Positions 801-41,550 of a DNA stretch of 50,901 nucleotides are shown piece after piece; within the stretch, counting starts at the first letter, position 1; every line of letters begins with the position of its first letter. The notes beneath the pieces were generated by a model. That model was not told the DNA's origin. It was given only the letters and a program-made list of their open reading frames with translations, and did no database searches. The position numbers and the translations under genes were made by a program. The stretch is from an uncultured Bacilli bacterium (GTDB taxonomy: Bacteria; Bacillota_I; Bacilli_A; RF39; UBA660), in contig CANQYU010000003.1 of NCBI GenBank assembly GCA_947628145.1, forward strand, positions 1 to 50,901, read 5' to 3'.

Positions 801-820
801 ATTTAATGGGAGGTAGTAAG

Positions 821-1780
821 ATGTGGAAATACATTGGGACAAAAGAATGTAACGAATTTTTGCTATCTCTCCATTTATTTAATTGTCAAAATACCAAAAA
901 ATATTTAAAAGTATTATATTCAATTAGCAACAATATTGAAAAAAATTATAATATATATAAAATTAAAAAAAGAAATGGTAAATATCGAACTATATATGAA
1001 CCCAATTCTCTTTTAAAGCATATTCAAAGCCAAATTTTAATTAATATACTTAATAATAAGTCTATATCAAAATATGCTAAAGCTTATCATAAGGGTATAT
1101 CCTTAAAAGATAATGCTCTTCCCCATATAAATAAAGAAATGATTTTAAAATTAGATATTGTCAATTTTTTTGAAAATATAACCTTTTTAGATATATATAA
1201 TTCTTGTTTTTCCATAGAATATTTTCCCAAATCAGTAGGAATGTTATTAACTTATTTATGTACATATGATGGGCATTTAACCCAAGGCTCTCCAACATCT
1301 GCCTATATTTCTAATCTAGTAATGAAAGATTTTGATAACATATTAGGCGAATGGTGTAAAGAAAATAATATATCATATACAAGATATTCTGATGATATGA
1401 CTTTTTCGGGTAATTTTAATCCAAGTGAAATAATAATTAAAGTTAGAAAGATGCTATATAAATTGGGACTAGAACTAAACGAAAGCAAAATCCATATTGT
1501 TCCTAAATCCGCCAGTCAAGTAGTCACGGGAATTATTGTGAATGAGAAAGCCCAAGTTAGTATAAAATATCGTAAAGCCCTAAGGCAAGAAATGTATTAT
1601 ATAAAAAAGTTTGGCTTGACATCCCATTTGCAAAAGAAAAATATCAATATTGACAAAGCTAAATACTTAAATAAACTTTATGGAAAAATAATATATGTCT
1701 TACAAATAAATGCAAATGCTCAAGAATTTATTAAATATAAAGAAATTTTAGAAAATTTACTAACTTTAAGTGATATTTAA
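821..1780 (+). CDS. Retron-type reverse transcriptase
   Basis: NALPH (region X NAxxH), KLDIxNFF, QGSPTS, YSDD catalytic motif, VTG (region Y); RBS GGGAGGT at 808-814 favours ATG 821 over 806. Confidence 0.92.
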   Translation: MWKYIGTKECNEFLLSLHLFNCQNTKKYLKVLYSISNNIEKNYNIYKIKKRNGKYRTIYEPNSLLKHIQSQILINILNNKSISKYAKAYHKGISLKDNALPHINKEMILKLDIVNFFENITFLDIYNSCFSIEYFPKSVGMLLTYLCTYDGHLTQGSPTSAYISNLVMKDFDNILGEWCKENNISYTRYSDDMTFSGNFNPSEIIIKVRKMLYKLGLELNESKIHIVPKSASQVVTGIIVNEKAQVSIKYRKALRQEMYYIKKFGLTSHLQKKNINIDKAKYLNKLYGKIIYVLQINANAQEFIKYKEILENLLTLSDI

Positions 1781-1848: not shown

Positions 1849-2895
1849 ATGACTATTGAAGAAGAAATATTTACCAAAGCAAAAGCTGATTTTTCTAAAA
1901 TATCTAAATATGGATTTAAAAAAAATCAAACTTTATATAAATATTCTGAGAATATTATGGATAATAAATTTAGAGTTGATATTGAAATAAATCAAGATGG
2001 GGTAGTTAAAGGCAAAGTTTTTGACTTATCTTTTGATGAAGAATATTTTAACTTTCGAATGGAAGAAAATATAGGTTCCTTTGCCAGTCAAGTTAAAGAA
2101 GAATTTAAAAATTTATTAATCGATATTAGAAATGAATGTTTTATAAAAGAATATTTCCTATATGCGCAATCAAATAGAATTGCCTCTTTAATCAAAGAAA
2201 AATATAAATCTCATCCCGAATTTGAATGGGAAAAATTTCCAGGCTTTGCTACTTTTCGAAATAAAGATAATAAAAAATGGTATGGTTTAATAATGAATAT
2301 TAATCAAAATAAATTAATTCCCAACACTAATGGTGAAATAGAAATAATCAATCTAAAACTAGAACCAACCGAAATAGAAAATTTATTAAAATTAGATGGA
2401 TTTTATCCGGCTTATCATATGAATAAGAAAAATTGGATTTCAGTTATTCTGAATGATACTGTATCCGATGAAAAAATAATGAATTTAATCGCCAAAAGTT
2501 ATTCCTATACAGTTACAAATAAAAATAATGTTAAAAATGAGTGGCTCATCCCCGCGAATCCCAAATATTTTGATATTGAAAAAGCTCTAAAAGAAAATAA
2601 TATAATCACCTGGAAACAAAGTACTAATATTAAAGTAGACGACCTAGTTTATCTCTATGTTGCAGAACCCTATTCCTCAATTATGTATAAATTTAAAGTA
2701 ATTGATGTTAATATACCCTATGAATATCAAGATGAAAATTTAAATATTGAAAAAGTTATGAAAATAGCTCTAATAACTAGATATGAAAAAGGAAAATTAT
2801 CATTTAATAAATTAAAAGAATTTGGAATAAATGCTGTTAGAGGCCCAAGATATATGCCTGTAGCTTTAAGTGAATATATAAAAAAATTAAAATAG
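1849..2895 (+). CDS. MmcQ/YjbR family DNA-binding protein with C-terminal EVE-like domain
   Basis: KWYGLIM...INLK...PAYHMNKKNWISV (YjbR); WLIPANPKYFD...WKQ...VYLYV...VRGPR (EVE/PUA-like). Confidence 0.8.
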   Translation: MTIEEEIFTKAKADFSKISKYGFKKNQTLYKYSENIMDNKFRVDIEINQDGVVKGKVFDLSFDEEYFNFRMEENIGSFASQVKEEFKNLLIDIRNECFIKEYFLYAQSNRIASLIKEKYKSHPEFEWEKFPGFATFRNKDNKKWYGLIMNINQNKLIPNTNGEIEIINLKLEPTEIENLLKLDGFYPAYHMNKKNWISVILNDTVSDEKIMNLIAKSYSYTVTNKNNVKNEWLIPANPKYFDIEKALKENNIITWKQSTNIKVDDLVYLYVAEPYSSIMYKFKVIDVNIPYEYQDENLNIEKVMKIALITRYEKGKLSFNKLKEFGINAVRGPRYMPVALSEYIKKLK

Positions 2896-36670: not shown

Positions 36671-37531
36671 ATGAATAGATATGAAAGCACTAAAAAAGTC
36701 AGTTTAATTGGTATGTTAAGCAATATTTTTTTGCTTGTCATAAAATTTGTAGTCGCCTATATTTCTCATAGTGAAGCTCTTCTAGCCGATGCAGCCAACT
36801 CTGGAGGAGATATTTTTTCTTCTCTAATGTCTTATATTGGTAATAAAATCGCGAGTCATCCTAGTGATGAAGACCATAATTTTGGTCATGGCAAAGCTGA
36901 ATATATCTTTTCTTTATTAATAGGTATATCTATGCTTTTAGTTGCTTCTAAAATATTTTACGATTCTTTTTGTTCTATTTTAAATCATAGTCAATTTATT
37001 TTTTCCTTTTATTTAGTAATTGTTTGTATTATAACTATTTTAATTAAATTAGCTTTATATTTTTATTGTAAATTAAATTACAATAAACATCATAATATTT
37101 TATTAAAAGCTACTATGCAAGATAATCGTAATGATGCTATATTATCTTTTGGTACTCTTATTTCCGTTATGTTAGGTTTCTTTGGCTATTACTATTTTGA
37201 TGGTATCCTTGGTTGTTTAACCTCTCTTTATATAATATTTACTGGAATATCTATTTTTATAGAAAGTTATAAAATATTAATGGATGTTTCCTTAGCTAAA
37301 GAATATACGGACGAAATAGTAAAATATATTTTAAAAAATAAAGATATAAAAGATGTATCAGATTTTTCGACTATTCCTACTGGTTATAAACATATTGCTA
37401 TTTTAACTATTAATGTTGATGGTAATTTAACTACTTTTAAATCCCATGAACTAGCCGATAATTTAGAAAAAGAAATACCTTTACAATATCATAAAATATA
37501 TAAAGTAATAATTCATGTAAACCCTATTTGA
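36671..37531 (+). CDS. Cation diffusion facilitator (FieF-like) transporter
   Basis: ALLADAANSGGD, HNFGHGKAE, DNRND, IIHVNP. Confidence 0.92.
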   Translation: MNRYESTKKVSLIGMLSNIFLLVIKFVVAYISHSEALLADAANSGGDIFSSLMSYIGNKIASHPSDEDHNFGHGKAEYIFSLLIGISMLLVASKIFYDSFCSILNHSQFIFSFYLVIVCIITILIKLALYFYCKLNYNKHHNILLKATMQDNRNDAILSFGTLISVMLGFFGYYYFDGILGCLTSLYIIFTGISIFIESYKILMDVSLAKEYTDEIVKYILKNKDIKDVSDFSTIPTGYKHIAILTINVDGNLTTFKSHELADNLEKEIPLQYHKIYKVIIHVNPI

Positions 37532-37754
37532 TAATACTTTTCGGATAGGGTTTTCTTTCGTCTGTTAATCCAATTAAATAATCAATTGAAGTATCATAAA
37601 ACTTAGCTAACTTTTCTAAATGATAAATAGGAATAACTCTAAGTCCGGTTTCATACCTAGAATATTGTACTTGTGTAATTTTTAATATTTTAGCAATATC
37701 TTCTTGTTTTAAATCTTTATCATTTCTAATTTCTTTTAATCTTTCAATTTTCAT
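37524..37754 (-). CDS. XRE-family repressor (cassette 1)
   Basis: RLKEIRNDKDLKQEDIA...YSRYETG...SIDYLIGLTD; RBS GAGG before ATG 37754. Confidence 0.88.
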   Translation of the reverse strand: MKIERLKEIRNDKDLKQEDIAKILKITQVQYSRYETGLRVIPIYHLEKLAKFYDTSIDYLIGLTDERKPYPKSIIK

Positions 37755-37798
37755 ACGTTTACCTCTATTTAATTTTGGCACAATACCACTTATTTTGC

Positions 37799-37870: not shown

Positions 37871-39250
37871 ATGAAAATAGAAAGATTAGAATTAAGTAAT
37901 AATAAACTTAAATATATAGTTATAGGTGTAATAATAACCTTATTATTAGTAATATTAATAAATTATTTAACTACAAGAGCAAGTTACAGAAATACGGAAA
38001 GTATAGAATTAGCTAAAGGAACAATAAATTATAGTTTAGTAGATTTAGAAATAGTAAGTATAACAATAGATGGTTCTCCAAGTGATATTATGCCTGGGGA
38101 TGGATATGCATTAAAAGATACAAGTTATTGTACCGAAAAAGTAGGAGACACCGATACACCAAGTGATACCATAGAATTAACATATGAAAATGGGATATTA
38201 AACATAACCCCATATACCACAAAAGGAACAAATTGTTATTTAGAGTTTGAGAAATATGTTCCACCAACTGCGGAAGATATGTTAGCTAAATTGGAAACGG
38301 CCAAAGGAAGCCAATATTCAATAAGTACATTAAGTGCACCAATGACAAAAAACCAAGAGGCTTCTACAAATAAATTGTATAAATATCCTGAAGGAAGCGA
38401 TTATACATATATATTTAGAGGAAATGTAACAGATAATTGGCTCAACTTTGCTGGCCATACTTGGAGAATAATAAGAATAAATAGTGATGGAACACTAAGA
38501 ATAATATTTTCATGCGCCACCGAAGATTGTTTTACAACAACAGGTCCTGAAACAAATGCAGTAACAGGTAGTGCGTATAATTCTTCTATTAATGATAATA
38601 CGTATGTAGGATATTATTTTGGAACCCCAAGTTCAAGTAGTTATGAAGAAACCCATAAAAGTTTAGCCACAAATCCAAGTAATGTAGCAACAGCAGTAAA
38701 AGATTGGTATAACGGAACTGGAGCTATGTCAAGTTATGAAAGCAAAATAAGTGGAAGCACAGGTTTTTGTAATGACCGGAGTTTATATGTATCAAGTGGA
38801 TATGGAAATGGTGCTGGAAATCAAATCTCATTATATGGAGCATATGGAAGATTTGTAGATGCCAGTCAGAATGGTTTAACAAGTGTAACACCGAGTTTAA
38901 ATTGTAGTAGTAATGATTTATTTACTTATAGTAAAGATGCTGGAAAAGGGAATGGAATATTAGAGGTACCAGCAGCATTAATAACCGCTGATGAGGTAGC
39001 ATTAGCCGGAATGTTATATGATTCAGCAGTAACAAGTAATTGGTTATATACGAACGAATATTATTGGACTATGTCTCCGTATAACTGGTACGGTGGTGGT
39101 GCTCACGTGTTCATTTTGACTACCGGTGGCTCTCTCAGCAGCTTCGGCGTGTACTGGACTGCTCCTGGTGTGCGTCCAGTAATAAATCTGAAAGCTAATA
39201 TAAGCATTACCGGAGCAGGAACAACAGATAATCCATTTGTTGCAACATAA
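37871..39250 (+). CDS. Membrane-anchored surface protein with C-terminal CLec-like DGR variable region (target 1)
   Basis: N-terminal TM; WRIIRIN, GFCNDR, LITADE; C-terminal YWTMSP...GVRPVINL. Confidence 0.85.
   Translation: MKIERLELSNNKLKYIVIGVIITLLLVILINYLTTRASYRNTESIELAKGTINYSLVDLEIVSITIDGSPSDIMPGDGYALKDTSYCTEKVGDTDTPSDTIELTYENGILNITPYTTKGTNCYLEFEKYVPPTAEDMLAKLETAKGSQYSISTLSAPMTKNQEASTNKLYKYPEGSDYTYIFRGNVTDNWLNFAGHTWRIIRINSDGTLRIIFSCATEDCFTTTGPETNAVTGSAYNSSINDNTYVGYYFGTPSSSSYEETHKSLATNPSNVATAVKDWYNGTGAMSSYESKISGSTGFCNDRSLYVSSGYGNGAGNQISLYGAYGRFVDASQNGLTSVTPSLNCSSNDLFTYSKDAGKGNGILEVPAALITADEVALAGMLYDSAVTSNWLYTNEYYWTMSPYNWYGGGAHVFILTTGGSLSSFGVYWTAPGVRPVINLKANISITGAGTTDNPFVAT
39044..39203 (+). 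repeat. DGR-type variable repeat VR1
   Basis: Aligns with 41253-41415; differences concentrated at codon positions 1-2; identical 24-nt 3' block CCTGGTGTGCGTCCAGTAATAAAT. Confidence 0.8.
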
Positions 39251-39254
39251 AAAA

Positions 39255-39296
39255 CTTGTCTATACTGCTTTTCATTCTTATTCATGTATAGACAAG
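39255..39296 (+). other. Conserved 11-bp hairpin just after the target 1 stop codon
   Basis: CTTGTCTATAC / GTATAGACAAG with 20-nt loop. Confidence 0.7.
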
Positions 39297-39308
39297 ATAT
39301 TTATCATT

Positions 39309-39336
39309 AGGTAGAGAGTAATCTCTATCTTTTTTA
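39309..39336 (+). terminator. Intrinsic terminator with GTAA loop
   Basis: AGGTAGAGA-GTAA-TCTCTATCT then T-tract. Confidence 0.7.
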
Positions 39337-39343
39337 TAAATAA

Positions 39344-39802
39344 TTATTTTAAGTATTTAGGGTCATTAGTTCTACCTAATAAATAATCCGCGGAAATATT
39401 ATATTTTTTACAAATAGTATATAAAAAAGAAGTAGCAATACTATTTACACCTCTTTCATAAGAAGAAATAGTCGAAAAAGCAGTATTAAGTAATAATGAT
39501 AATTTAATTTGTGTAATTTTATTTTCTTTCCTAAATTCTTTTAATCTTTTACCGCTTAATTCTTTATTTAAATCTTTATTAATATATAATTTATAATTAA
39601 TATTATCAGTTAAATTAAAAATATAATCTAAAGAAACATTAAAATAGTTGCATAAATAATTTAAGTGTTTAATAGGCATAATATAATCTTCAGTTTCATA
39701 ATGACTATATAAACCTTTATGTATTTTTAATATATTAGCCATTTCTTTTTGAGTATTTCCTACTCTTTCTCTTAATTGTTTTAATCTTTCATTGTAGTAC
39801 AT
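39344..39802 (-). CDS. Double XRE-HTH repressor (cassette 2)
   Basis: Two HTH_3 repeats: RLKQLRE...SLDYIF and RLKEFRKE...SADYLLGRT. Confidence 0.88.
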   Translation of the reverse strand: MYYNERLKQLRERVGNTQKEMANILKIHKGLYSHYETEDYIMPIKHLNYLCNYFNVSLDYIFNLTDNINYKLYINKDLNKELSGKRLKEFRKENKITQIKLSLLLNTAFSTISSYERGVNSIATSFLYTICKKYNISADYLLGRTNDPKYLK

Positions 39803-39874
39803 ACTATCACCACAATAATTTTCTCACGAATAATTAGTAGATTAAAAAAAGGACGCGAAATAATGCAATTTTTC

Positions 39875-39913
39875 TTGACTTTGATTATAGCAGATATTAT
39901 AATTTAAATATAA
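39875..39913 (+). promoter_or_regulatory. Sigma-A promoter of cassette 2 target
   Basis: TTGACT(39875)-17-TATAAT(39898) followed by TTAAATATAA, same as cassette 1. Confidence 0.65.
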
Positions 39914-39956
39914 GTTAGAAAATTACAATATGTTTGATAATAGAAAGGAAAATAAT

Positions 39957-41468
39957 ATGAAAATAGAGAAATTAGAATTAAGTAATAAGAAAATAAAATA
40001 TATAGCAATAGGCTTTATAATGTGTGCAGTAATATTCATATTAATAAACTATTTAACAAGTAGAGCAAATTATCGAAATACCGAAAGTATAGAACTTGCT
40101 AAGGGAACTATCAATTATAGTATTGCAGATTTAAATGTAATAGCTATGTATAAAATAGAAGATGGGGAAGATGTAGAAATAACCGAAATGCCAGGAAACG
40201 GTTATCAAATAAATACTACAAAAAGTTATTGTTACACGACTAATAAAGAAGAACATGATACAAAAGTAACATTAAGCTCCGATAAGGATGGCAATATAGT
40301 AATTGGTAATTTAAAAAAAGGAAGCAAATGTATATTTTATTTTGAAGAATATATTCCGCCAACTCCAGAAGGCATGTTGGCTAAATTGAATGAAGCAAAA
40401 ACTAAAACTGGCGAAGAAAAATTTACAACGTCTAAAACTGGAACAAAATTTGATGGAACGGACCAAAGTGGAATAATGAAAGTAACTGGAATTGACAATG
40501 GAGATAATGGAAATACTTTATATGAAGCTCCAGATAATGATGGAACAAGTTATTTCTTTAGAGGACAAGCAAATAACAATTGGGTAGAGTTTGCTAATAA
40601 AAGATGGCGAATAATCCGAATAAATGGCGATGGAACATTAAGATTAATATATCAATGTGGAACTGCAAGTTGTACTGACACAAGAGGTAATAATACCCGA
40701 ATAAATGGGAGCACCGGAATTGCATATAAATCTTCTCCAGATAATGATAATACCTATGTAGGATATTATAATTTAGGAAAAGCCAGTAGCACTTATGACG
40801 AAGCCCATAAGGGAACAACCCCAAGTACCATAGCAGAATATTTGAATACTTGGTATGGAAGCAACTTAGCAACATATGACAAATATATAGACCAAGATGC
40901 CGGATTTTGCAATGATAGACAAAAAGTAACTGGTGCAGGCTCCTCAAGTTATGATTCAGGAACAGGAGCAGGAACCTCAGCAACAAGTTATGCAGCCTGG
41001 GGAAGAGTAGCAAAGAGTAATTCTACTAGACAAACACAATTACCAACATTAAAATGTGGAGTAAGTGCTACAACAGCAACAGCTCAAGAAACGAGTGTAG
41101 AAATAGATAATGATGCTTATAAAAGAGACTTATTTACAAAAACCGGAGCTAGTAAAGGAAATGAATTGCTACAATATCCAATAGGGCTAATAACCGTGGA
41201 TGAGATATTATTAGCTGGAGGTTTTTATGGAACAGCAAATTCAAGTTATTACTTATATACGAACAAGTCTTATTGGACCATGTCTCCGTGTCGCTTGTAC
41301 ACTGACGGTTATGCTGGCGTGTTCGTTGTGTATGATAGTGGCGACTTCGGCAGTGCCAGCGTAACCAGCACTAATCCTGGTGTGCGTCCAGTAATAAATT
41401 TAAAAGCTAATATAACTTTCTCAGGAGGAAATGGTTCAGTTGATACCCCATTCGTAGTAGCAACTTAA
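39957..41468 (+). CDS. Membrane-anchored surface protein with C-terminal CLec-like DGR variable region (target 2, paralog of 37871)
   Basis: MKIEKLELS N-terminus, shared YRNTESIELAKGTINYS, WRIIRING, GFCNDR, YWTMSP...GVRPVINLK. Confidence 0.85.
   Translation: MKIEKLELSNKKIKYIAIGFIMCAVIFILINYLTSRANYRNTESIELAKGTINYSIADLNVIAMYKIEDGEDVEITEMPGNGYQINTTKSYCYTTNKEEHDTKVTLSSDKDGNIVIGNLKKGSKCIFYFEEYIPPTPEGMLAKLNEAKTKTGEEKFTTSKTGTKFDGTDQSGIMKVTGIDNGDNGNTLYEAPDNDGTSYFFRGQANNNWVEFANKRWRIIRINGDGTLRLIYQCGTASCTDTRGNNTRINGSTGIAYKSSPDNDNTYVGYYNLGKASSTYDEAHKGTTPSTIAEYLNTWYGSNLATYDKYIDQDAGFCNDRQKVTGAGSSSYDSGTGAGTSATSYAAWGRVAKSNSTRQTQLPTLKCGVSATTATAQETSVEIDNDAYKRDLFTKTGASKGNELLQYPIGLITVDEILLAGGFYGTANSSYYLYTNKSYWTMSPCRLYTDGYAGVFVVYDSGDFGSASVTSTNPGVRPVINLKANITFSGGNGSVDTPFVVAT
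41253..41415 (+). repeat. DGR-type variable repeat VR2
   Basis: Counterpart of VR1 with one extra codon; NNC/NNT-rich, A-depleted third positions. Confidence 0.8.
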
Positions 41469-41470
41469 TA

Positions 41471-41509
41471 CTTGCCTAAACTGCTTTTTCTTATTCAAGT
41501 TTAGGCAAG
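41471..41509 (+). other. Conserved 11-bp hairpin just after the target 2 stop codon
   Basis: CTTGCCTAAAC / GTTTAGGCAAG with 17-nt loop. Confidence 0.7.
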
Positions 41510-41525
41510 ATATATTGAACTTATT

Positions 41526-41550
41526 GTAGAGTGAAAACTCTACCTTTTTT
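41526..41550 (+). terminator. Intrinsic terminator with GAAA loop
   Basis: GTAGAGT-GAAA-ACTCTAC then C and T6. Confidence 0.72.

Follow-up and report, generated by a model that had tools for sequence, protein, structure and literature searches.

Two probable targets of a diversity-generating retroelement with dispersed templates in an uncultured Bacilli bacterium

The window analyzed here is an entire 50.9-kb contig (CANQYU010000003.1, positions 1 to 50,901; contig C3) of an uncultured Bacilli bacterium, whose assembled genome (GCA_947628145.1; G000 below) comprises 1.06 Mb in 73 contigs, with 27.7% GC and a completeness of 91.8%. It carries two genes, target genes 1 and 2, which can be aligned with each other, are both among 28 paralogues in G000, and both finish in a GC-rich stretch; their coordinates and those of all other features are collected in Table 1. 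A Pfam search returned no family match for gene 1, while gene 2 gave a weak match to DUF6273 over residues 441 to 492, with 19.2 bits, below the cut-off of 23.5. Near the C-terminal end of each gene lies a short variable repeat (VR), VR1 in gene 1 and VR2 in gene 2, and the evidence set out below makes it very probable that a diversity-generating retroelement (DGR), with template repeats (TRs) dispersed over other contigs, targets both genes.

The two VRs differ from each other in an unusual way. A preliminary description of the window, made from its letters alone, had counted 28 differences between them at codon positions 1 and 2 against only 6 at position 3 and had read this as adenine-directed mutagenesis. 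Our recount gives exactly the same figures: when the variable cores (28 codons in VR1 and 29 in VR2, compared between TCTCCG and CCTGGT with one codon gap) are aligned, the 28 shared codons hold 16, 12, and 6 differences at positions 1, 2, and 3, respectively. Had this bias run across the whole gene, it would have spoken against mutagenesis of the VRs, but it is local. The remaining 423 aligned codons of both genes show 145, 137, and 188 differences, with position 3 leading, and the 87 flanking C-terminal codons show 22, 19, and 34; the share of differences that falls on position 3 is thus 6/34 inside the VRs and 188/470 outside (Fisher P = 0.010). Third positions inside the VRs are also nearly devoid of A, as had been remarked: A occupies 0/28 in VR1 and 1/29 in VR2, hence 1 of 57, compared to 47% and 46% elsewhere in the respective genes (P = 8e-14).

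A repeat search of the window revealed no TR, and the sole mutual match was that of VR1 with VR2. A permissive blastn search of G000, on the other hand, returned ∼40 related sites. Of these, 28 belong to ORFs (open reading frames) of the target family, and 7 are noncoding and richer in A, with a similarity to the VRs that ends directly after GCGTCCA. These seven TRs form a tandem group of four on contig C15 and a pair on C28, with a single copy on C42. They are 99, 102, or 105 nt long and differ in their non-A framework codons and by whole codons; the earlier suggestion of two TR variants was therefore right in kind, and the actual number is seven. The template that had been predicted from the two VRs comes close to the real ones, with 15 of 17 codons matching TR_C15a and 14 of 17 matching TR_C42 and TR_C28a by our own reading. 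Adenines fall on codon positions 1, 2, and 3 of the seven TRs 111, 100, and 7 times (240 sites each), each TR contains 7 to 10 AAC codons, and none of the seven contains a codon that is prone to become a stop under A-to-N change. Because TR adenines lie almost only at positions 1 and 2, rewriting would alter amino acids and leave third positions fixed, which yields the reversed signature.

Adenine specificity was assessed in two ways. In alignment columns that hold A in all seven TRs, 173 of 330 VR cells differ from the TRs, compared to 61 of 1,188 cells in columns with an invariant non-A base, and the mean VR entropy is 1.51 in the former and 0.25 in the latter; this test is independent of which TR is chosen as the best match. 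When 22 well-aligned VRs were instead compared with their best TR, mismatches occurred at 366 of 708 A sites and 153 of 1,572 non-A sites, a contrast that is flattered by our defining the best TR as that with the fewest non-A mismatches. Six family members were left out of this count as degenerate (those on C22, C37, C30, and C33 and those at C8:26044 and C1:60478), and they show mismatches at 84/185 A sites versus 123/413 non-A sites. The check that the preliminary description had proposed, alignment of the window VRs to any TR found, placed their mismatches mainly at TR adenines: VR1 differs from its best TR, TR_C42, at 20/32 A sites and 8/70 non-A sites, and VR2 differs from TR_C15d at 17/33 and 5/72, each with one 3-nt gap. 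If any base present in any TR, or any position with A in any TR, is allowed, 6 of 105 positions of VR1 and 3 of 108 positions of VR2 are left unexplained. The existence of TRs and the centering of the mismatches on their adenines thus support adenine-directed mutagenesis.

The ends of the TR/VR homology are sharply defined. The flanks of the two VRs are identical, as described before, with TTATATACGAAC at 39044 and 41256 on the 5' side and a 24-nt block, CCTGGTGTGCGTCCAGTAATAAAT, at 39164 and 41376 on the 3' side. The 5' flank turned out to be conserved coding DNA outside the TR homology, which starts at approximately (A)TGTCTCCG. Of the 3' block, which had been put forward as a candidate for the initiation of mutagenic homing (IMH) sequence, only 12 bases, GGTGTGCGTCCA, are common to all seven TRs, and the CCT that precedes GGTGTGCGTCCA in the VRs is present in none of them. 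GCGTCCA is followed by GTAATAAAT in the VRs and by ATATCCTTTT in the TRs; at the VR-specific GTAATAAAT site, the TRs carry ATATCCTTT instead.

Each TR sits inside a unit of ∼345 nt, which we call a cassette, and the units are 86 to 90% identical from end to end. In order, a cassette comprises an extended -10 box, a conserved leader (GGGTTAATCT), the TR, a long stem, a conserved segment AGATTAATCC, a short hairpin, an A-rich stretch, a second long stem, and a run of T. The extended -10 boxes, TGNTATAAT or TGATATACT, were found by eye 7 to 8 nt before GGGTTAATC in six of the seven cassettes; the promoters of the cassettes went undetected in a consensus promoter scan. A covariance model built from the 3' part of the cassettes has 57 matches in G000 and its relatives, in which 93% of cells are paired (76.7% when shuffled and 40 to 47% with slid partners) and 39 of 47 pairs have changed on both sides, although these figures favor the model, since the alignment was fitted to it. 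The post-TR stems are 86 to 100% paired, with two-sided changes. As an independent check, we used a MAFFT alignment of 44 full cassettes, which was not fitted to any structure. In this alignment, the first 10 bases of the leader form a 10-bp duplex with AGATTAATCC that is 96.4% paired; two-sided changes, amounting to 36 cells, affect 6 of its 10 pairs, and in none of 500 shuffles was the cell count or the covariation score as high as observed. This duplex was adopted in place of our first RNAalifold model, in which the 3' end of the TR paired with the downstream segment; that pairing lacked covariation support and did no better than shuffles. An Rfam scan of the cassette and reverse transcriptase (RT) loci identified no family, its lone snoRNA match (28.4 bits, below the gathering score) being attributable to chance. 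Every cassette looks like a complete DGR RNA gene. There is also a weak eighth match to the model at C12:22575-22656 (38.5 bits; E, 1.8e-4).

Three RT genes are present in G000, one each in the window, on C66, and on C22. The third belongs to an operon of three intact ORFs that overlap end to end and encode a MutS-like protein and Avd, both upstream of the RT, and the RT itself. A hallmark of DGR RTs is an (I/L)GxxxSQ motif, next to the catalytic YxDD, and the C22 RT, which has both, can be placed by its sequence in the DGR clade. Its best solved relative is 8ub7_A, a 328-amino-acid protein named only "Reverse transcriptase" (E, 8.2e-27; the next match, 2.3e-13), which ranks far ahead of Cas-RT and group II RTs; we take entries 8ub7 to 8ube to be the bRT of BPP-1, the prototype DGR. 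No curated DGR-RT model was among the NCBIfam matches of the C22 RT. The Avd protein has a borderline match to Pfam bAvd (40.2 bits; cut-off, 40) and no solved relative detectable by sequence, and the MutS-like protein, of 140 amino acids, matches MutS_I with 24.2 bits (cut-off, 20.6).

The 28 members of the target family occupy ∼3.6% of G000. Their complete ORFs encode 459 to 644 amino acids with an N-terminal membrane anchor, and the GGTGTGCGTCCA end is kept by 19 of the 28 VRs, both window VRs included. The VR-end motif GTGCGYCCAGTWATHAA occurs 23 times in G000 and 20 to 25 times in three congeners, with no occurrences of the reversed-pattern controls; in databases, the family has at least 5,706 relatives, mostly in singleton clusters. 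Many contigs break inside or beside family members (C14, C17, C21, C23, C25, C27, C28, C29, C35, C39, C44, C55, C56, and the end of C1), so the counts of targets and cassettes are lower bounds. One member lies beside the RT operon (C22 7840-9339; L007 4541-6040); its VR is AT-rich and degenerate and has AATGCTCGCCCA in place of the GGTGTGCGTCCA end, so that it looks like a copy that is not rewritten.

A profile of the target family gave nothing meaningful against solved structures, namely, three matches with E values of 0.4 to 0.5 to the membrane-anchor segment. An AlphaFold2 model of gene 2, built on 89 sequences, has a pLDDT of 89.4. Its residues 151 to 512 best match the N-terminal domain of the Thomasclavelia ramosa IgA peptidase (9qa6_A; Z, 13.2; root mean square deviation, 3.6; 198 residues), which is also the single match of a Foldseek search against the PDB at an E value of ≤0.001, with a low TM score. 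A wide structural search was needed to make the lectin fold visible: most of its 50 listed rows are C-type-lectin folds with Z scores of 3.5 to 6. Judging from the model, the targets would have a C-type-lectin-like fold with the VR in its C-terminal part, at residues 452 to 487 of 512 in gene 2. As far as the consulted parts of its description go, the T. ramosa domain is an oversized C-type-lectin-like core that lacks the canonical disulfides and is not needed for IgA peptidase activity (PMC12237041). It is the best structural match to the large domain of the target, yet sequence identity is 15% and it has no known VR; the common fold reveals no function.

The targets share a further element after the stop codon, a conserved 11-bp hairpin with a loop of 15 to 20 nt, which is followed by the true terminator. 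By our own reading, this two-hairpin arrangement follows most of the 27 foldable targets, and the stems exhibit compensatory variants (CTTGTCTATAC, CTTGCCTAAAC, and CTTGCTCATAT). The post-stop hairpin may serve in target recognition, possibly in the role of the target-site hairpin known from BPP-1, or else be an element of the mRNA.

Beyond G000, the cassette model matches 22 of 24 congeneric genomes, in up to 25 copies, and has no match in 16 genomes from other families of the class. Twelve occurrences of the TR-end motif lie within 3.3 kb on G015:C20 and nine on G002:C17, the reversed-pattern controls having none, and TRs of congeners are 96 to 120 nt long. The DGR RT is found in 17 of the 24 congeners, mostly as a single copy (G009 has a second, more distant one with 44% identity), and the two congeners without cassettes are also without the RT. 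As in G000, RT and TRs lie apart: the RT contig of the well-assembled G002 has no TR end, and in G020 the nearest TR ends are >136 kb from the RT. The record titles of RT relatives name uncultured Bacilli, Tenericutes, and Mycoplasma sp. CAG:776. At 31 loci with RT identities of 66 to 86%, no cassette was found in flanks of up to 6 kb, whereas at 8 of 11 loci with RT identities of 51 to 54%, cassettes lie just upstream of the RT; at one of these (L056), a target gene is followed by eight tandem units of ∼334 nt, avd, and the RT. Taken together, these two groups of loci indicate that tandem TR arrays are a trait of the RT clade, and separation of the TRs from the RT one of this genus.

We propose that the VRs, which make up 33 to 36 C-terminal codons, would be written by mutagenic retrohoming from adenine-rich template RNAs, in a system that would consist of the single MutS-like/Avd/RT operon on C22, the seven stand-alone cassettes at three other loci, and at least 28 scattered targets. 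The C22 RT and Avd would use all cassettes in trans, any cassette would be able to rewrite any target with the shared ends, and the system would be active today. Two observations bear on the choice of template. Among nearest paralogues, VR length is the same in 12 of 24 cases and the best TR in 6 of 24, so that the VR length class is uncoupled from the relatedness of the gene bodies; the gene at C6:19799 and that on C15, for example, are 91% identical over 300 residues before the VR, yet their VRs are 105 and 102 nt long. The synonymous T/C of GCG(T/C)CCA, in turn, tends to be concordant between the TRs and VRs of one genome among the rows listed: T in 6/6 TR ends and 22/23 VR ends of G000, C in 2/2 TR ends and 12/12 VR ends of G013, and T in the TRs of G015, while G017 and G023 are mixed. 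Both observations are consistent with whole TR segments being copied into many targets, without proving it.

Carried to its conclusion, this would mean that a single RT-Avd-MutS-like machine draws in trans on many DGR RNA genes, each transcribed independently, any template for any target, a proposal that we regard as attractive but tentative and that may well be wrong. Seven templates are present in G000 and as many as 25 in congeners; one 3.3-kb tandem array holds 12, and the cis array of a sister lineage holds 8. The templates would provide a choice of framework codons and lengths, bounded by two ends that are also found on ∼20 to 30 surface-lectin genes. Since these ends are shared by TRs and targets, any template could rewrite any target, and the choice of cassette would multiply adenine mutagenesis. 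Such a template library resembles the silent cassettes of antigenic variation but would act via RNA and reverse transcription.

Several findings weigh against parts of this picture. At non-A sites, neither window VR agrees fully with any TR (8 and 5 mismatches), both window VRs and ∼11 of the 28 VRs overall have an extra codon before GGTGTGCGTCCA that occurs in none of the seven TRs, and the overall non-A mismatch rate of 9.7% is above that of textbook TR/VR pairs. C22, with its 15,877 nt, contains no TR or cassette, so none lies beside the DGR RT, and the link between RT and cassettes is accordingly one of co-occurrence; the usual architecture, with the TR directly beside the RT, is absent here, but it is usual rather than strictly defining. 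Avd reaches 37.5 bits with NCBIfam DivGenRetAVD, for which the cut-off is 80, and direct comparison with the folds of known DGR targets gives weak matches (TvpA 2y3c, Z, 4.9; Mtd 1yu0, Z, 4.1). Five cassette-bearing congeners (77 to 93% completeness) gave no RT with our query, and RT pseudogenes with 4 and 23 in-frame stops were found at G008:C43:512-1537 and G011:C50:767-1876. These two congeners retain one and four cassettes, respectively, which suggests that the DGR system is decaying in some species. As to present-day VR variation, the assembled contigs of four sequencing runs (X1, X2, X3, and X5), matched at 80% likeness, mix paralogues and related organisms, with 242 to 288 short contigs per run of sample S1.

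Some of these findings could be accommodated if the window VRs were fossils, once written by a DGR but no longer rewritten, with present differences that reflect old homing and drift. No TR in the G000 assembly has the length of VR1 or VR2, their non-A mismatches (8/70 and 5/72) and the six and three positions that no TR explains would be natural outcomes of drift, six other family members have clearly degenerate VRs (84/185 A versus 123/413 non-A), and two congeners have RT pseudogenes. Conversely, both window VRs keep the exact GGTGTGCGTCCA end, like 19 of the 28 VRs, and open reading frames; the ORFs for RT, Avd, and the MutS-like protein are intact; a TR with the extra codon (...ACTACGCCTGGTGTGCGCCCAATA) is present at congener locus L016; and the missing template may be absent from an assembly that is 91.8% complete and whose 73 contigs often end in the target family. 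On balance, we consider fossilization of the window VRs rather unlikely. It is less likely still that pairing is restricted in cis, such that each cassette would serve only the adjoining target and the cassettes of other targets would be missing from the assembly. Proximity does match in places, the 102-nt VR of the C15 target fitting best the adjacent TR_C15a (13/34 A mismatches, 3 non-A mismatches, and no gap) and the sole 99-nt VR, on C28, lying near the sole 99-nt TR, TR_C28b. Yet there are 28 VRs for 7 cassettes, most targets, both window ones included, have no cassette nearby, the two ends are common to all TRs and most VRs, and on C42 a 108-nt VR neighbors a 102-nt TR.

Explanations that dispense with the C22 retroelement fare far worse. 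Diversifying selection and gene conversion among paralogous surface proteins would suit a large family with conserved flanks, and positive selection likewise favors changes at codon positions 1 and 2; they leave unexplained, however, the noncoding A-rich copies with a conserved structured RNA, the confinement of variation to template-A columns, the near absence of A from third positions in a genome with so low a GC content, and the co-occurrence of a DGR-type RT and Avd. We therefore regard an origin without any retroelement as highly improbable. Even less credence can be given to the RT encoded in the window itself as the driver of diversification. It is the sole RT on C3, but its scores are of retron type (PADLOC RT_Ec107-like and NCBIfam retron St85 family), no Avd was found among the neighboring ORFs (181-510 and 1849-2895), and the window has no further TR-like repeat; it is disfavored on these grounds. 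The gene that follows it (1849-2895, plus strand) encodes a 348-amino-acid protein with a YjbR domain, and the pair is unrelated to the DGR.

Genes for XRE-type helix-turn-helix (HTH) regulators, some of them double-HTH, adjoin target genes at the five loci inspected. Besides the two in the window, they are found in G000 at C42 1825-2277, C15 6836-7701, and C22 9484-9711; those of the window, C42, and C22 lie on the strand opposite to the targets. The neighbor of the C42 target is a 150-amino-acid double-HTH gene similar to that between the two window targets. These neighbors may provide gene-by-gene control of expression of the target family.

Table 1. Coordinates of the two target genes, their repeats, the template repeats, the reverse transcriptases, and neighboring genes (window positions unless a contig is given)
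Feature	Location	Strand	Remarks
DGR target gene 1	37871..39250	+	459-aa ORF; N-terminal membrane anchor, expanded C-type-lectin-like domain (predicted), VR near C terminus
DGR target gene 2	39930..41468	+	512-aa ORF; architecture as gene 1
VR1, TR-homologous stretch	39072..39178	+	variable core 39080-39163; GC-rich 3' end GGTGTGCGTCCA at 39167-39178
VR2, TR-homologous stretch	41281..41390	+	variable core 41289-41375; GGTGTGCGTCCA at 41379-41390, then GTAATAAAT at 41391-41399
VR-specific GTAATAAAT of gene 1	39179..39187	+	immediately 3' of TR/VR homology; candidate IMH-like determinant
Post-stop hairpin, gene 1	39255..39296	+	CTTGTCTATAC ... GTATAGACAAG; terminator hairpin next, 39310-39335
Post-stop hairpin, gene 2	41471..41509	+	CTTGCCTAAAC ... 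GTTTAGGCAAG; terminator hairpin next, 41526-41549
TRs on C15	9573-9674, 9916-10020, 10262-10363, 10605-10709	+	four in tandem
TRs on C28	11186-11290, 11532-11630	-	two
TR on C42	2447-2548	-	single
DGR RT	C22 4761-5879		372 aa; motifs LPIGNMTSQ and RYMDDF
XRE-type HTH regulator gene	37524..37781	-	divergent from target gene 1; Pfam HTH_3, 5e-14
Double-HTH (XRE-type) regulator gene	39344..39802	-	between both targets, divergent from gene 2; Pfam HTH_19 6.7e-23, HTH_3 4.9e-20 (two stretches)
Retron-type RT	806-1780	+	PADLOC RT_Ec107-like 415.7 bits; NCBIfam retron St85 family 210.4 bits (below 235 cut-off)
Group II intron RT	C66 (L001 876-2580)		intact RT/maturase 425.7 bits; D1-D4 intron RNA matches

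The usual picture of a DGR, and the usual object of searches, is a single TR next to a single RT. In this genome, the template is a free-standing RNA gene that can be duplicated, arrayed, and scattered away from the RT, and pipelines that seek repeats only near RTs would miss most of the system, both window genes included. The share of the genome devoted to these 28 hypervariable surface lectins points to a major role at the interface with host or phage in this uncultured gut lineage. The cassettes also form a natural collection of compact DGR RNAs that differ in their templates, which bears on how template RNAs are recognized and on multitemplate engineering of DGR mutagenesis. If the template-library reading is true, a genus of gut Bacilli with reduced genomes has turned a DGR into a library of templates.

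The system is a DGR of a known kind in an architecture that we did not find described in the literature searched: open papers on DGRs, apart from their supplements, which may list such loci, yielded neither self-contained TR units arrayed in tandem nor a DGR from this lineage. The comparisons that follow draw on parts of the cited papers. Two DGR surveys (MetaCSST, PMC6642488, and PMC11661182) report some DGRs with at least two TRs, of which one survey lists 53, and Stenotrophomonas has two TRs; one of the surveys dropped its nine genome sequences with at least two TRs from the analysis of cassette architecture, and the consulted sections of both mention neither self-contained TR units in a tandem array nor TRs detached from the RT. 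In Thiohalocapsa PB-PSB1, many targets are reported, for some of which the best explanation is that an RT, a TR, or both act in trans, and its seven RTs are attributed to separate horizontal acquisitions (PMC10907252); the assembly studied here, by contrast, has one DGR-type RT and many paralogous templates. The TR of Trichodesmium erythraeum is described as a highly expressed small RNA with a main transcript of 265 nt and its own promoter, serving at least 12 genes (PMC4143802). It differs, as far as described there, in being a single TR near the RT, without arrays of differing TRs, and in belonging to a cyanobacterium with a large genome.

In the consulted text of Wu et al. 2018 (PMC5758913), a place right next to the RT is described as usual for TRs, unlike in the genome studied here, whose DGR RT contig has no TR; a term search of that text for second or multiple TRs found none. 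The same paper describes DGRs with a MutS-like gene (Architecture D), which also carry avd, and one such gene in a Legionella DGR. The C22 operon is alike, in that a small MutS-like gene occurs together with avd and the RT.

The closest likeness is to BPP-1 (mtd-avd-TR-brt). Both systems have A-specific differences between TR and VR, an AAC-rich TR whose adenines occupy codon positions 1 and 2, a VR at the C terminus of a lectin-fold protein, and Avd together with an RT. In the BPP-1 RNA, a post-TR stem-loop, a duplex between upstream and downstream strands, a short hairpin with adenosines, and a long stem are reported to follow in this order, with an Avd-binding stem-loop, a "cPRT Stop," and a bRT-binding stem among the named elements; putative counterparts of the Avd-binding stem-loop and the "cPRT Stop" are reported in 207 of 278 Avd-bearing DGRs (bioRxiv 10.1101/2023.10.23.563531). 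The order of elements in our cassettes is that of BPP-1, whose elements are reported to be required for cis-primed reverse transcription, and by analogy the cassette elements may be equivalent to those of the BPP-1 RNA. The two systems differ in their layout. In BPP-1, a single TR is embedded in one operon, with the upstream duplex strand inside the avd coding sequence, whereas the cassettes described here are free-standing, have their own noncoding leader and extended -10 box, and are unlinked to the RT; and while the BPP-1 system is borne by a phage, the present one is chromosomal and has 28 targets.

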